Assembly (NCBI GenBank): GCA_023423795.1
Contig: JAFAEX010000098.1
Span: forward strand, 14,620-78,619
Reading direction: 5' to 3'
Length of the DNA: 64,000 nucleotides
Source: Chloroflexota bacterium
Lineage (GTDB): Bacteria; Chloroflexota; Chloroflexia; Thermomicrobiales; UBA6265
Shown here piece by piece: positions 3,874-49,087 of this stretch. The notes below the pieces were generated by a model, which had not been told where the DNA came from, made no database searches, and saw nothing but the letters and a program-made list of their open reading frames with translations. The translations under genes and the position numbers were made by a program. The stretch's first letter is position 1. The number at the start of each line of letters is the position of its first letter.

Positions 3874-4109
3874 ACATGTAGCGGTGTCACCGGCCGGGTA
3901 CCCCAAATGGTGACCATCGCCCGCTTCGTGGGCCGACCGGTCGAGACCCAGCGGCCGGAGCCACGGGCGGGGTGGAACGCTTTCCCCCTCGGCAGAGAGC
4001 AGCGGCGAGCGTGGTCGGCAACGACCGCGAGCGCGGGGGTCACGGTTCTGCGTCGGACCGGGTGGGACGGTCCGCGGACGGAACGGCGCACGGGCGCGGA
4101 GAGGTCGGC

Positions 4110-7556
<3,447 letters not shown>

Positions 7557-9265: not shown

Positions 9266-10384
9266 CTAGTACGTGACGTCTCGCACGCGGCGGGTCACGA
9301 AGACGATGAAGATCGAGACGACGACGAGGACGATAACGAGAAAGGTCATCGCCATGGTGGTGGCGTACCCGACGTTGGTGCTCTCCACGCCCTCGCGGTA
9401 GATGTAGAGGGAGACGGTGTCGGTCGCACCGCCGGGGCCGCCGGCGGTGACGACGCGGACGATATCGACGAGTTTGAACTCGAAGATCATCCGCAGCACG
9501 ATGGCGGTCAGGCTCACCGGCAGCATCAGCGGGAAGGTCAGGTCGCGGAAGCGGCGAAGCCCGGTCGCGCCGTCGATCTGGGCGGCCTCGAAGATTTCGT
9601 GCGGGAGCGCCTGCAGGCCGGCGAGCAGCATCACCATCATGAACGGGATGTTGATCCACGAGTCCATGGCGACGATGCCGAGGAACGCCGGGACCGGCTG
9701 GTCGAAGAACGAGACGCCGTCGATCCCGATCTTTTCGAGCAGGTTGGGAAGCACGCCGCGGTTGGCGTCCATGATCGAGCGGCCGATCATCCAGCCGACG
9801 GCGACCGGGCTGATCATGAAGGGCAGGAGGAAGGCGACGCGAAAGAATTTCTGGGCGCGGATCTGCTGGTTCAGGAGCAGCGCCACCCCGAACGCGATGA
9901 CATACTGGATGGGGATGGCGATGAAGACGTACTTGAAGTTGTTGCCGAGCGCGTTCCAGAACGTCTCGTCGTTCGCGAGTTTCCGGAAGTTGTCGAACCC
10001 GTTGAAGCGCAGCCCGTGCGCCGATCCGAGATCCCACTCGGCGAAGGCGACGACGAACCCGAAGAGGGTGGGGAAGATCACCAGCGCAAGCGTGACCTGA
10101 AGACCGGGCAGCAGGAACAGCAACTGGCGTCCGCGCTCGCCGCGGGTGACGACGACCGCGATGTCCACGAGGACGAACCAGGCGACGACCGCGACGGCGA
10201 CGGGCTTCCACGAGGAGAAGCCCTGCTCGATAAAGCCGAGCGTGCGCAGCGCCTGCATCATGACGAGCGCCACCACCAGCCCGGTCGCGACCTGGACCAC
10301 GATCCGCATCGCGGCGGCCCTGGCGCCGGCAGGGCGGGTCGGGGCGGCGACCGCGATCGGCGGGGTTGAGGCTTGCTGATTCAC
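9266..10384 (-). CDS. Carbohydrate ABC transporter permease (MalF-like)
   Basis: EAA loop IFEAAQIDGATGLRRFRDLTFPLMLP. The start is uncertain: GTG 10384 is chosen, with ATG 10471 and an internal MRIVVQ as alternatives. Confidence 0.85.
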   Translation of the reverse strand: MNQQASTPPIAVAAPTRPAGARAAAMRIVVQVATGLVVALVMMQALRTLGFIEQGFSSWKPVAVAVVAWFVLVDIAVVVTRGERGRQLLFLLPGLQVTLALVIFPTLFGFVVAFAEWDLGSAHGLRFNGFDNFRKLANDETFWNALGNNFKYVFIAIPIQYVIAFGVALLLNQQIRAQKFFRVAFLLPFMISPVAVGWMIGRSIMDANRGVLPNLLEKIGIDGVSFFDQPVPAFLGIVAMDSWINIPFMMVMLLAGLQALPHEIFEAAQIDGATGLRRFRDLTFPLMLPVSLTAIVLRMIFEFKLVDIVRVVTAGGPGGATDTVSLYIYREGVESTNVGYATTMAMTFLVIVLVVVSIFIVFVTRRVRDVTY

Positions 10385-14527: not shown

Positions 14528-14682
14528 CCCGGTCGATTGGAGCAGGAACGGACTGGCGCGGTTCGACCGCGCCGACGTCCTTGCGTTGGCTGTCCGGCCG
14601 CAGAGGGCAGCCCGGCACGAAGTCCGGGCGCAGGCGCCGCGATCCCACGTCGTACCGAGAAATCAGGCTGGTCACGCTCCCC

Positions 14683-14762
14683 GTCATCCCGAGCCTGTCG
14701 AGGGATCTCGTCGTTGCCGTAAATCGGAGGAGGACGAGATCCCTCGACAGGCTCGAGGTGAC
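14683..14762. repeat. REP-type palindromic hairpin (family GTCATCCCGAGCNTGTCGAGGGATCTCGTC)
   Basis: Left arm 14683-14712 and right arm 14733-14762 (GACGAGATCCCTCGACAGGCTCGAGGTGAC) with a 20-nt loop. It sits in an intergenic gap between convergent genes. Confidence 0.9.
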
Positions 14763-14804
14763 GATTGGGGCAGTGACGATTCGCCCGGTTTGGAACGAGG
14801 CGGA

Positions 14805-17997: not shown

Positions 17998-18090
17998 CCT
18001 GTTGCCGCACGAATCGCGAGCGGGCGGTACAGGCGGTTCGCACGTTCCGATGCATTGCGGTGACGGGTGCACCGTCACGGCCTCGCACCC

Positions 18091-18170
18091 GTCATCCCGA
18101 GCGTGTCGAGGGATCTCGTCGTCTCAGCAATTCGGGAAAGGACGCAATCCCTCGACACGCTCGGGATGAC
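18091..18170. repeat. REP-type palindromic hairpin (same family)
   Basis: Arms GTCATCCCGAGCGTGTCGAGGGATCTCGTC (18091-18120) and GACGCAATCCCTCGACACGCTCGGGATGAC (18141-18170) with a 20-nt loop. Confidence 0.9.
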
Positions 18171-21720: not shown

Positions 21721-21815
21721 ACCCATCGTCATCCCGAGCTTGTCGAGGGATCTCGTCGTCACCGTAGCGTGGGAGGGGGACGAGATCCCTCGACAAGCTC
21801 GGGATGACGATGGGT
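21721..21815. repeat. REP-type palindromic hairpin (same family, longest arms)
   Basis: 37-nt arms ACCCATCGTCATCCCGAGCTTGTCGAGGGATCTCGTC (21721-21757) and the exact complement at 21779-21815. Confidence 0.92.
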
Positions 21816-28385: not shown

Positions 28386-28460
28386 CGCGCCGGCGAGAAC
28401 CGGCTGATTGATCCGGAGCCGCCGTCAACGGTGGAGGGGTCGGCGGCGAGGCCGGTCCGG

Positions 28461-28733
28461 TTTGTTCGGTATTCATTCGGTATTTATTCGCCGTTTATTC
28501 GGCGGCGGATTTCCCATAACCATGCGGAAACCGGGTTTCTTCGGCGTCCCCCGCCAGCCTCGCGGGCGCAAACGGGGCGGGAGCACCCAGGAGGGCGTTC
28601 CGGGCGTTGAGGGTGGGAGGCGAGAGCGAACAAACACCATTTCGGACAGATAGATGCGTACGTACGCAGGGTCTCACGTTTGACCACATGCCGAAAAAAT
28701 ACCGAATAAAGGCCGAATAAATACCGAACAAAT
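28461..28733 (+). repeat. Copy A of an unclassified AT-rich element bounded by inverted arrays of 11-bp tandem units (MITE-like or iteron-like)
   Basis: Left array has TTCGG/TTCGC at 28465, 28476, 28487 and 28498. Right array has CCGAA at 28691, 28702, 28713 and 28724. Internal hairpin lies at 28510-28530. GCGAACAAAC (28626) sits exactly 30 nt before palindrome GCGTACGTACGC (28656-28667). A second copy lies at 48697-49087. Confidence 0.85.
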
Positions 28734-28817
28734 GGCCATCGCGAAGCCCCGACGGGTGCTTGCCAGCGGCCGGCGGCAGCGTAGGCAACCGCCCGGATTT
28801 TGTACAAGAACCGGTTT

Positions 28818-28922
28818 CAGAACCCCGCCAACTTCGCCCCGTCGTCGTCCCGAGCCTGTCGAGGGATCTCGTTTTCCCCGGATTAGTGCGGACGACGACG
28901 GGGCGAAGTTGGCGGGGTTCTG
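28818..28922. repeat. Perfect 33-bp inverted repeat enclosing a half REP site (probable bidirectional terminator)
   Basis: CAGAACCCCGCCAACTTCGCCCCGTCGTCGTCC (28818-28850) and its exact complement (28890-28922). The 39-nt loop contains CCCGAGCCTGTCGAGGGATCTCG, one REP arm. It starts 10 nt after the stop of the FDH membrane subunit. Confidence 0.9.
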
Positions 28923-28931
28923 AAACGTGCT

Positions 28932-29948
28932 CTACCTCGGCGAGCCCTTCCGGCGGGTCATCTCGAACGTCGCCTCCGGATCGTCCGCCGAGGCGTGGCC
29001 GGCGACGATGACGAGGTATCGAAGCAGGAAGCCGCCGGCCAGCGTGAGCAGCGTGGCCAGGACCGAGATGGGCCGGGCGTGGCGAGGAAACGATGCGGCG
29101 GCCGCGTTCAGGACGAGCGGAGCGGCGAGGCCCGCGCCGGCGACGCCGTGCCGGATCGTTTTGCCATGCCGTCCCTCGTGCAGCGGTTTTCCGCTGCGGC
29201 GGAGTCCCGTCAGCCAGGCCAGCAGGAGAGCCGCTTCGGCTACCCCGGCGATCTGCTCGAAGCGGGCGAGCCGGCCGTCGTGGCGGCGACTGGTAGCGCT
29301 CCTGACGAGGGCAACGGCGGCAGTCGCCGTCGAGAGGGCGGACGCGAGGAACAGCGGACCGAGGAGGACCGACCGACGCGCCCAGAGCGGCACCGCGGTC
29401 GCGCCGAGCAGGACGCCCGTATAGCCCGCGAGCAGCAGCCCGAGGCCGCCAGCGGCAACGTCGAGCAGGCGCGACGGCAGCAACCGGGTGACAGGCCGCA
29501 CGGCGGGCGGCAGGAGGCCGTCGGCGTCGGCCTGGAGCGCGACGGTGGCGGTCGCCGCGCCGCCGAACAGCACGAGACACCAGGTGCCGATGGACATTGG
29601 CGAGCGCAGTTTGAATACCCGCAGCATGTTGAGGAACCGCTCGGGCCGTCCGAGGTCGAGGATGAGCAGGGGAGGGCAGGCGAGGAACGCCGCGAACGAG
29701 ACGTAGCGGGCGGTCCGCACGACCGGTTTCGCTTTCCGGCCGCCGACCAGCGAGGCGACCACCGCGATCGCCTGCGCGCCGCCGGAGATACCTCCCAGGA
29801 AGAAGTAGACGATGACCAGCCACTTCCAGTGGGCGCGGTGGATGACGGGCACGCCGGCGTAGGAGCGCGGCCCCGAACGCTCTCGTTTCCTCCGCCGGCC
29901 GTCTCCGGGCTGCGGATCGGGCTGACCGCGCTCGCCGGATGCGTTCAC
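28932..29948 (-). CDS. NrfD/PsrC-type polytopic membrane subunit of the FDH complex
   Basis: Trimmed to GTG 29948, which forms a GTGA overlap with the upstream stop. Sequence WKWLVIVYFFLGGISGGAQAI..., with about 8 predicted TM helices by eye. Confidence 0.8.
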   Translation of the reverse strand: MNASGERGQPDPQPGDGRRRKRERSGPRSYAGVPVIHRAHWKWLVIVYFFLGGISGGAQAIAVVASLVGGRKAKPVVRTARYVSFAAFLACPPLLILDLGRPERFLNMLRVFKLRSPMSIGTWCLVLFGGAATATVALQADADGLLPPAVRPVTRLLPSRLLDVAAGGLGLLLAGYTGVLLGATAVPLWARRSVLLGPLFLASALSTATAAVALVRSATSRRHDGRLARFEQIAGVAEAALLLAWLTGLRRSGKPLHEGRHGKTIRHGVAGAGLAAPLVLNAAAASFPRHARPISVLATLLTLAGGFLLRYLVIVAGHASADDPEATFEMTRRKGSPR

Positions 29949-40889: not shown

Positions 40890-40911
40890 GCGAGGATTCC
40901 CGGGCGCTCTC

Positions 40912-40975
40912 GTCATCCCGAGTGCGTCAGCACTGTCATCCCTCGACAAGCTCGGGATGACAGTGCTGACGCACT
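40912..40975. repeat. Rearranged REP-derived hairpin after rpoD (probable terminator)
   Basis: A 22-bp perfect stem AGTGCGTCAGCACTGTCATCCC (40921-40942) / GGGATGACAGTGCTGACGCACT (40954-40975). A truncated REP arm GTCATCCCGAG lies at 40912-40922, and a REP right arm CCCTCGACAAGCTCGGGATGAC is embedded. Confidence 0.85.
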
Positions 40976-41050
40976 TAGGACGTCGGGGGGGTCCAGGGCT
41001 GCCAATTTCCGCGGAAGGTTGAGCGGGCGGCGCTGCCTGTGGGAAAGTAG

Positions 41051-42566: not shown

Positions 42567-42701
42567 GCGTCGTCGCAGGGGAGGGACCCGTGCCCTTCCT
42601 CGTTCTCTACCCGTCCTCTTCGAAACCGGCGCGGAGTTGGCTATCCCGCATCGGCATGTTCCCGTCGAGGGAGGGCACGGGTCCCTCCCCTGCGACGACG
42701 C
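42567..42701. repeat. Long inverted repeat of a second family (36-nt arms, 63-nt spacer)
   Basis: GCGTCGTCGCAGGGGAGGGACCCGTGCCCTTCCTCG (42567-42602) against the complement of 42666-42701, with one mismatch. It lies in an intergenic gap between obg and plsC. Confidence 0.85.
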
Positions 42702-48446: not shown

Positions 48447-48525
48447 TCCCGAATCGGGGATGCCCGCCCGTCCGTCCGCGCCGGAACTGAGGCAAGATTC
48501 AGCACCCGTCCGGCATTGGCCCTTC

Positions 48526-48605
48526 GTCATCCCGAGCCTGTCGGGGGATTTCGTTTCCGCCTCGGCACATTGGACGACGAGATCCCTCGACAGGCTCGGG
48601 ATGAC
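48526..48605. repeat. REP-type palindromic hairpin (same family, slightly degenerate left arm)
   Basis: GTCATCCCGAGCCTGTCGGGGGATTTCGT (48526-48554) / ACGAGATCCCTCGACAGGCTCGGGATGAC (48577-48605). Confidence 0.88.
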
Positions 48606-48696
48606 GAGGGGCGGGCGGCCTCGGGAAAGGCGTGGCGTCATGCATGCCGCCGTTGGACCGAGCCGACGGCATGGTGCGCTCACCTTTTCCCAGAAT

Positions 48697-49087
48697 TGTT
48701 TTGGTGTTTATTCGGTATTTGTTCGGTCGCACGCAAGCGCGTACGTACGCGGCAAATAGGGCGATTTCGGGTTTATTCGCTCCCCCCTGGCCCTCTGGAA
48801 GCTCGGCACGGCGCCCGACGAACCCGAGCAGGCTTCCCCACGCCGCGCCGGAGCGCAGCCGGTAAACGCTGGTTCCGGTCGAGGTCGGTTCGACCGGATT
48901 CGGTCGCGTCCCTGGCCGGGATAGCGCGCGCATAAGCGAGAATCGGCACGACCGATGGTCGCCCCGGCGCCGCTGCCGCGACGCAGGGTGTGGGAGGCAG
49001 GCCGAACAAACCGGGTTTCCGCATGGATATGCGGAAACCCGGACCGCAAAAATACCGAATAAACGCCGAATCAATACCGAATAAACT
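48697..49087 (-). repeat. Copy B (inverted orientation) of the AT-rich element with 11-bp unit arrays
   Basis: TTTGG/TTCGG units at 48700, 48711 and 48722. Palindrome GCGTACGTACGC lies at 48739-48750. GTTTATTCGC at 48771-48780 is the reverse complement of GCGAATAAAC, again 30 nt from the palindrome. Perfect 14-bp hairpin CCGGGTTTCCGCAT/ATGCGGAAACCCGG lies at 49011-49042. CCGCA/CCGAA units at 49044, 49055, 49066 and 49077. Confidence 0.85.

Follow-up and report, generated by a model that had tools for sequence, protein, structure and literature searches.

Repeats with composite 11-bp-unit ends in a Thermomicrobiales genome: a candidate family of miniature foldback elements

The window analysed here is a 64,000-nt stretch of DNA of an uncultured bacterium, within scaffold_85 (109 kb) of the ENA metagenome assembly ERZ28598706. 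Among named sequences, its RNase PH and NrfD are closest to homologs from Thermomicrobiales and other Chloroflexota MAGs, and all annotatable genes in the window and its extensions are housekeeping genes. Two copies of an intergenic repeat built from 11-bp units were found in it. Copy B, our main subject, lies between the 3' ends of the convergent aminotransferase and RNase PH genes, and copy A lies where a class II aminoacyl-tRNA synthetase gene and NrfD converge, again between their 3' ends. The modules of copy B are listed below, with copy A as the last entry.

48695-49086, minus strand (read 49086 to 48695): copy B as a whole
49086 to 49043, minus strand: outer L-array of four head-to-tail 11-bp units pointing inward, GTTTATTCGGT ATTGATTCGGC GTTTATTCGGT ATTTTTGCGGT
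49042-49011, minus strand: hairpin with a perfect 14-bp stem and the 4-nt loop ATCC
49012-49042, minus strand: 31-nt hairpin segment, stem arms CCGGGTTTCCGCAT and ATGCGGAAACCCGG
49011 to 49001, minus strand: solitary L-side inner unit GTTTGTTCGGC, with a C-rich tract next to it
49000 to 48782, minus strand: variable core, 219 nt
48771-48781, inverted (plus strand), pointing inward: R-side inner unit, GTTTATTCGCT on the plus strand
48770-48751: 20-nt spacer between the R-side inner unit and the palindrome
48750 to 48739, no strand: perfect 12-bp palindrome GCGTACGTACGC, 20 nt from the inner unit
48738-48728: 11-nt spacer from the palindrome to the R-array
48727 to 48695, plus strand: outer R-array of three inward units, ATTGTTTTGGT (degenerate, outermost), GTTTATTCGGT and ATTTGTTCGGT
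28460-28733, plus strand: copy A, 274 bp; four units, 31-nt hairpin segment, unit, 79-nt core, inverted unit, 20 nt, GCGTACGTACGC, 22 nt, four inverted units

In copies A and B alike, four RTTTRTTCGGY units precede a 31-nt hairpin segment, which leads through a single unit into the core; beyond the core come an inverted unit, 20 nt, GCGTACGTACGC, a spacer of 11 or 22 nt and finally three to four inverted units. An earlier sequence-only reading had proposed that minus-strand copy B repeats the module order of copy A, and all modules could be located between 49086 and 48695. The perfect 14-bp stem that it placed at 49011-49042 is present, with a 4-nt loop, and the four-unit array is real but sits one base off from the 49087-49044 then given, at 49086-49043. 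The L-ends of B and A align over 91 nt without gaps at 77% identity (about 125 nt with gaps), in agreement with the earlier estimate of some 87 nt at 75% with no net length change. The cores do differ in length as described; measured between the inner units, with slightly different borders, they come to 79 nt (A) and 219 nt (B) instead of about 95 and 210 bp. The first ~45 nt and last ~8 nt of the B core can be aligned to copy A, and the remainder is unmatched. The solitary L-side unit of copy B begins 42 bp, start to start, from the last L-array unit. On the minus strand its R-side inner unit (48781 to 48771) reads AGCGAATAAAC; the motif singled out earlier, GCGAATAAAC, corresponds to this unit and indeed lies 30 nt start to start from GCGTACGTACGC. 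The arms of copy A are 43 nt long and 84% complementary. Because the outer arrays are mutually inverted in each copy, the element is a foldback with composite terminal inverted repeats, which the sequence-only reading had not stated.

The units are concentrated in these two places. Allowing up to two mismatches, GTTTATTCGGT matched the window 18 times against 4.1 ± 2.1 times in shuffled sequence (0 of 100 shuffles reached 18); all matches with zero or one mismatch fall inside copies A and B, and a position-weight scan of the window placed its high-scoring units only there. Folding of the whole element as single-stranded DNA is predicted to be better than that of shuffled sequence (z = -5.2 for B and -3.2 for A). 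No ORF over copies A, B, C or G matched Pfam at E ≤ 1, and Rfam 15 gave no match in the window at gathering thresholds and none inside copies A or B at E ≤ 1. A scan of A and B found no promoter-like sites in or around them and one terminator-like site, the L-side hairpin of copy B, with a predicted stability of -22.7 kcal/mol. The sequence TTTGTT follows the 31-nt hairpin segment, and the combination faces the upstream RNase PH gene and resembles a terminator serving it. The hairpin of copy A has the same orientation as in B, yet falls below the criteria of the terminator scan.

Further copies were sought by translating the conserved modules in all inward frames and comparing them with protein databases, in which the element appears as spurious ORFs. 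The six public 'hypothetical proteins' so found (93-296 aa) are gene-calling artefacts across the non-coding element. Copies A, B, E and G are available as DNA, while P0241, P0242, P0243 and P0245 are known only as spurious ORFs.

P0241: copy C, collinear with copy A from the L-array through the R-array
P0242: the B locus in a strain variant
P0243: copy D, three L-units, A-type core, palindrome in the frame and spacing of A, short R spacer
P0244: copy E
P0245: copy F, core of about 30 nt
P0246: copy G
L262:875-1160: copy E in assembly GCA_030155585.1, five plus five units, positional ortholog of copy A
L261:10071-10519: copy G on scaffold_433, same assembly as the window, 70.6% G+C, between co-directional genes and ~195 bp upstream of one of them

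The family thus comprises at least six distinct loci, and the DNA copies measure 274-449 bp. Module order and exact spacings are kept in the new, independent copies while the sequence between motifs changes; the element is not a simple duplicated segment, as had been argued earlier. All five L-modules (A-L, B-L, E-L, G-L and G-R) have 31 nt from array to inner unit, and a C-rich tract follows every inner unit. In all three of A, B and E the palindrome GCGTACGTACGC is intact and stands 20 nt from the inner unit, across a spacer of changing sequence. L-arrays hold three (D), four (A, B, C, G) or five units (E), R-arrays three, four or five, and the palindrome is separated from the R-array by 11 nt in B, D and E and by 22 nt in A and C, which bears out the expectation that lengths change in multiples of 11 bp. 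These steps must be interpreted with caution and on their own are no proof of protein phasing, because replication slippage gives the same result in any tandem array.

Core lengths are 79, 80, 219 and 277 nt, and about 30 nt in copy F, where the palindrome was not recognisable in the P0245 translation. One core type is common to A, C, D and E, and its first 30-45 nt are also alignable in B. The earlier description of conserved ends and a free interior therefore stands for the ends and only partly for the interior. L and R ends differ in their subterminal module. Copy G instead carries L-type modules at both ends, with the odd unit ATTGATTCGTA common to both, forming an 87-bp inverted terminal repeat; these two ends are more alike than the ends of different copies. 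The termini of the element are defined solely by where the arrays stop, and the flanks of A, B, E and G contained neither a target-site duplication nor a common target motif.

Co-variation of the hairpin arms, raised in the sequence-only reading, did not materialise: there are no compensatory changes and the arms merely decay on one side, from -22.7 kcal/mol in B to -6.4 kcal/mol in E. The loop behaves differently. At the B locus it is ATCC in B (49025-49028) and GGAT or GGAC in the strain variant P0242 (the third base of the Asp codon being ambiguous), and at the A locus AACC in A (28517-28520) and GGAC in E (L262:944-947). Two reverse-complementary states per locus suggest that the palindrome may flip in vivo, recurrently. 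Inversion of the whole hairpin segment was also considered and is unsupported by gapless comparison, in which only the loop occurs in two reverse-complementary states.

A separate REP-like family of CGTC-tagged paired palindromes, CGTCATCCCGAGC...GCTCGGGATGACG, distinct from the 11-bp-unit element, occurs at six sites in the 64 kb and also on L261.

14675-14770: REP-like site
18088-18170: REP-like site
21721-21815: REP-like site
28807-28933: REP-like site, enclosed by a larger hairpin whose 44-nt arms are 93% complementary
40899-40997: REP-like site
48519-48612: REP-like site

Both copies in the window had been said to lie about 90-115 bp from a REP sequence. This holds for A and B, at ~90-110 nt to the REP core motif and edge-to-edge distances of 74 nt (A) and 85 nt (B), but it is no feature of the family, since copies E and G have no such REP alongside; the REP was accordingly rejected as a part of the element, and its proximity to A and B is incidental. 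REP/BIME sequences are recognised by a palindrome of 20-40 bp, a GTAG or CGTC tag, high copy number and a RAYT gene in the genome (PMC3733652). These fit the neighbouring CGTCATCCCGAGC repeat, whereas the 11-bp-unit element has no tag and its arrays are direct repeats rather than palindromes. A second hairpin repeat, GGGAGGGACC...GGTCCCTCCC, with 36-nt arms that are 97% complementary, lies at 42567-42701 of the window and recurs at L261 ~10220-10290, L262 ~1285-1310 and L254 ~1390-1420. Relatives of it are found beside copy E and nested in the core of copy G.

The positional orthologs A and E allow the turnover of one site to be followed. The NrfD of GCA_030155585.1 is 94% identical to that of the window, and the flanks of the two copies are alignable at 69-83% identity. 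Their L-arrays differ by exactly one 11-nt unit and are 95% identical excluding that gap; the L-side inner unit and the palindrome are each 100% identical. The 20-nt spacer (45%), the R spacer (45%) and the central core (53%) have diverged, and the core of E is closer to those of copies C and D than to that of A. Motifs have thus been retained while the remainder turned over faster than the surrounding DNA. The orthologs are separated by indels of 1 nt and 11 nt; these frame-breaking changes and the missing Pfam matches show the element to be non-coding, in line with the sequence-only reading. Since the A site is filled in both lineages, copy A, at least, is old and stable. Contigs of relatives end 60-160 bp beyond NrfD at this site.

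The B site presents a different picture. The spacer between RNase PH and the aminotransferase gene is 795 bp in the window, 121 bp in L250/L251 (RNase PH 93% identical) and ~85 bp in L256 (92%), and these shorter spacers contain neither units nor REP. Units are also lacking in L254 (RNase PH 93%) and L252 (83%), where the downstream neighbour differs (glyoxalase and acetyltransferase, respectively). The site is therefore without the element in relatives whose RNase PH is 83-93% identical, with spacers too diverged to place breakpoints. Where independent Logan contigs from other samples have the identical RNase PH, they include the element or break off within its L-array, as is expected at a repeat. 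The P0243 and P0245 ORFs likewise end inside the R-array.

No transposase, integrase, phage or plasmid genes were detected in ~95 kb of annotated DNA of the organism, nor beside any copy. An autonomous partner with the same ends was found neither in the window, L257, L258 and L261 nor in the plasmid, phage, viral and species-genome collections. Copy density is low, with two copies in ~74 kb of scaffold_85: a 9.6-kb extension of the scaffold contained no further copy, and L/R-module profiles gave none in ~150 kb of DNA from the lineage. The pattern TTCGGNNTTNNTTCGGN{25,55}ATGCGGAAAC returned five matches in 185,579 species-representative genomes (the species of the window not included), none of which was accepted as a copy; four of the five are in unrelated lineages of lower G+C (Bacteroidales, Melioribacter, Chitinophagales), and the one plausible match, in Sandarakinorhabdus, falls within a coding-looking stretch, which we take to be a gidA/mnmG-type gene. 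In metagenomes a three-unit pattern hit mostly plain 11-bp tandem repeats, with the family hairpin or palindrome at none of the matches listed (at least 120). Scans of viral sequences (IMG/VR) gave only chance matches to a loose pattern and no match to two specific ones, and the nine tandem arrays that a four-unit pattern retrieved there are all unrelated. As no exact-pattern copy occurs in the species-representative genomes or in IMG/VR, neither a spread nor a donor of the element can be demonstrated. Literature searches returned the unit and palindrome strings only as primers and shRNAs, with no description of the element, and found no bacterial precedent in work on MITEs and tandem repeats.

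The family is dispersed, has composite inverted ends and interiors that are dispensable and can be nested, is present at the B site in the window and absent there from relatives, and coincides with contig breaks; together these features are best explained by a non-autonomous mobile element. Neutral locations, between convergent (A, B) or co-directional genes (G), also speak for it, as do the turnover at the A site and the absence of coding capacity, of a known RNA and of promoter-like sites. We therefore favour the reading, at about even odds (probability near 0.5), that copy B belongs to a lineage-restricted family of miniature, MITE-like, non-coding foldback repeats handled by a DNA-binding protein. 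A conserved 11-bp word at each helical turn, an exact palindrome and fixed spacers point to multi-site protein binding at each end. The suggestion of a protein-recognition architecture made from the sequence thus gains from the conservation of motifs and spacings, and recognition itself stays at the level of inference. The comparisons establish the family, its modules and constant spacings, the unit-wise changes of the arrays, presence or absence at the B site and the lack of coding capacity or a known RNA; since our searches yielded neither a transposase partner nor a target-site duplication, mobility, the binding protein and its cooperative phasing are conclusions that we infer.

Each end consists of three to five inward head-to-tail RTTTRTTCGGY units, a fixed spacer containing a palindrome, and one further unit. 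The distance from the last array unit to this solitary unit is 42 bp (L side) and 54 or 65 bp (R side), roughly in helical phase with its array. We hypothesize that a trans-acting protein could place one monomer or domain on each unit and spread cooperatively on a single face of the helix, while the palindrome in between would be looped out or bent, perhaps aided by an accessory factor. The inverted ends might then be paired in a synaptic complex that moves or copies the segment. The interior would be dispensable cargo or a remnant, which explains its range of ~30-277 nt and its acceptance of nested REP-like hairpins. Ends are used in this manner by Mu, Tn7 and IS21, with their multiple sites, and by the foldback, hAT and CACTA elements of eukaryotes, with their subterminal repeats.

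The end architecture is unusual for bacteria, and the element is otherwise akin to small intergenic mosaic or MITE-like repeats. With MITEs it shares small size, absence of coding capacity, dispersed copies and terminal inverted repeats (43-nt arms in A, 87-bp modules in G); the flanks of A, B, E and G gave no target-site duplication and the collections searched no autonomous transposase partner. Its low copy density, differing L and R subterminal modules and the old, stable copy A count against the assignment. Like bacterial MITEs and mosaic repeats (Correia/NEMIS, ERIC, RUP, the pneumococcal BOX element with its boxA-(boxB)n-boxC structure, E. coli BIMEs), it is small, non-coding, intergenic, dispersed and able to fold back, with conserved ends, a variable middle, a variable number of tandem sub-modules and apparent presence/absence between relatives. 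It differs from them in that, in place of a single inverted repeat, each terminus has an array of three to five 11-bp units in tandem and a solitary unit in phase with it, that the L and R subterminal modules are unlike, that no target-site duplication was found and no parent IS is known, and that copy number is low.

Several short sites in the same orientation at each end, inverted between ends, are also a property of Mu attL/attR, the TnsB sites of Tn7, IS21 and Tn552/Tn402, in which, as here, the L and R arrangements differ and a gap could take a bending factor. Sites in these transposons are ~19-22 bp long, their termini are TG...CA, and they are flanked by 5-bp duplications (4-8 bp in IS21). 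The element, compared with them by description and not by sequence, has an 11-bp unit, no conserved terminal dinucleotide, no duplication and no linked DDE transposase. Eukaryotic foldback elements (Drosophila FB, Tetris) have inverted termini made of tandem short repeats (PMC4079207). Together with hAT, CACTA and P elements they are alike in their variable repeat number, interiors ranging from near nil to long or unrelated sequence, and mostly non-autonomous copies; they are eukaryotic, however, and have much longer arrays; the likeness is an architectural analogy that does not indicate shared ancestry.

A serious though less likely rival, kept alive by the lack of both a target duplication and a transposase, by the low density of copies and by the motif conservation in the old pair A/E, is that the copies are chromosomal landing sites of a host protein in the manner of BIMEs or RIB/RIP. 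The arrays would be cooperative operators of an OmpR/PhoB-type winged-helix protein, or of a nucleoid or partition protein, with a structural or insulating role; they would bend DNA, stop converging transcription or titrate the protein, and would spread rarely by recombination. The binding mode has a parallel in Streptomyces, where PhoP operators consist of 11-nt direct-repeat units, G(G/T)TCAYYYR(G/C)G, bound cooperatively in runs of up to six to eight; exactly 11 nt are needed for cooperativity, and shortening the unit to 10 nt cripples binding (PMC2275107). The element has the same 11-nt head-to-tail geometry, again with a unit that is conserved towards its 5' side and looser towards its 3' side, and GTTTATTCGGT matches the PhoP consensus at nine of 11 positions, a resemblance to a loose consensus from another phylum that we take as an analogy for the binding mode and not as an identification. 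PHO boxes, moreover, are direct arrays at promoters, whereas the element is a dispersed repeat with inverted pairs around a dispensable core and lies outside promoters, A and B being between convergent 3' ends; the unit geometry fits the operator class and the placement of A and B does not.

Retention of motifs and spacings between A and E while the spacers were scrambled resembles purifying selection on sites, and for this old pair a selected host function is at least as good a fit as a selfish element. The L-side hairpins and T-rich tails of A and B also face the upstream gene in a terminator-like way. Host landing sites agree less well with the ~150 kb of lineage DNA containing no other array, with the lack of the element at the B site of relatives, with cores that tolerate 30-277 nt and nested repeats, and with hairpins that have decayed in several copies, and the two near-identical L-type ends of copy G are typical of transposon termini.

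Very doubtful is an origin as a relic of an integrated replicon or phage function, duplicated in the chromosome, such as an iteron-type origin, a partition centromere (plasmid R1 parC, with 11-bp iterons) or an arm-type recombinase attachment site. Iteron origins, parC and attP arm sites have short tandem repeats of about one helical turn flanking a palindrome-rich centre, a likeness that would favour such a relic, and the arrays are the only AT-rich patches in a background of 70% G+C. Nevertheless, rep, par, integrase and phage genes are absent near every copy, BLASTN of copy B gave no similarity to 72,556 plasmids and 50,697 phages, IMG/VR gave no match, the loci (at least six) are all in housekeeping contexts, and the arrays are inverted here while the two parC arrays are direct. 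Least probable of all is a structured non-coding RNA gene or 3'-UTR element whose array panhandle and internal hairpins act as RNA (a stabiliser, terminator or sRNA), for despite the strong predicted folding, the 3' intergenic placement and the terminator-like hairpin of copy B in the sense of the upstream gene, there is no Rfam match even at E ≤ 1 and no promoter-like site, the hairpin arms decay on one side with no compensatory changes, copy G lies upstream of a gene and not in a 3' region, and conservation takes the form of motifs, TTCGG at 11-nt intervals and an exact palindrome, and not of pairing.

If the MITE-like reading is right, the family is a compact bacterial mobile element with ends made of one-helical-turn repeats and strictly kept spacers, a design known from Mu, Tn7, IS21 and eukaryotic foldback elements that is not known to have been described in Chloroflexota or among the small intergenic repeats of bacteria. 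With its 11-bp unit, its spacers of 31 and 20 nt and GCGTACGTACGC, the element offers a defined bait for the protein that would read it. The element accounts for assembly breaks and for the spurious 'hypothetical proteins' P0241-P0246, and the pair A/E, with internal turnover at one fixed site, bears on how intergenic repeats evolve. Should a host regulator bind the arrays instead, the family would represent unusual operator arrays away from promoters.

Similar arrays were observed in metagenome DNA of unrelated organisms. Perfect palindromes of four plus four (A/G)TTTCTTCGGT units around a 5-nt centre occur at L224:6107-6186, L227:441-531, L234:1888-1967 and L248:482-572 (~57% G+C), dispersed among unrelated housekeeping genes (TsaD, peptidase M28, histidine kinase); their unit is nearly that of the window, and they have no interior. 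In low-GC DNA, converging 11-bp TTCGG arrays lie 150-250 bp upstream of DUF6266 genes (L132, L164, L166 and L204, also L201). The first four lie in Bacteroidota-like defence islands, and in the two longer loci type I restriction-modification genes (L164, L204) and STAND NTPase genes (L204) adjoin. Genes for Schlafen/AlbA_2 plus HATPase_c_4 (plus HTH) proteins were also seen to have a single 11-bp TTCGG-type array at their 3' end or shortly beyond it, in at least seven cases among the 120 loci listed (L141, L142, L196, L205, L175, L138 and L249); in L138 and L249 the array is inside the 3' part of the stop-to-stop ORF. A link between the family and DUF6266 or AlbA_2 genes was rejected, no such gene being near any Thermomicrobiales copy.

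We regard it as a long shot that the element represents an undescribed prokaryotic foldback or landing-pad class, in which helically phased 11-bp 'TTCGG' arrays at the ends would be read by an oligomerising protein of winged-helix type; the arrays in unrelated organisms may mean that phyla have one recognition principle in common. If one protein family does read converging TTCGG arrays across phyla, the interest would be wider.

Elsewhere in the window, a 1224-aa stop-to-stop ORF (3882-7556) encodes a class II ribonucleotide reductase with a TSCPD domain, and its barrel domain is matched in two stretches, a split that could reflect an insertion such as an intein.
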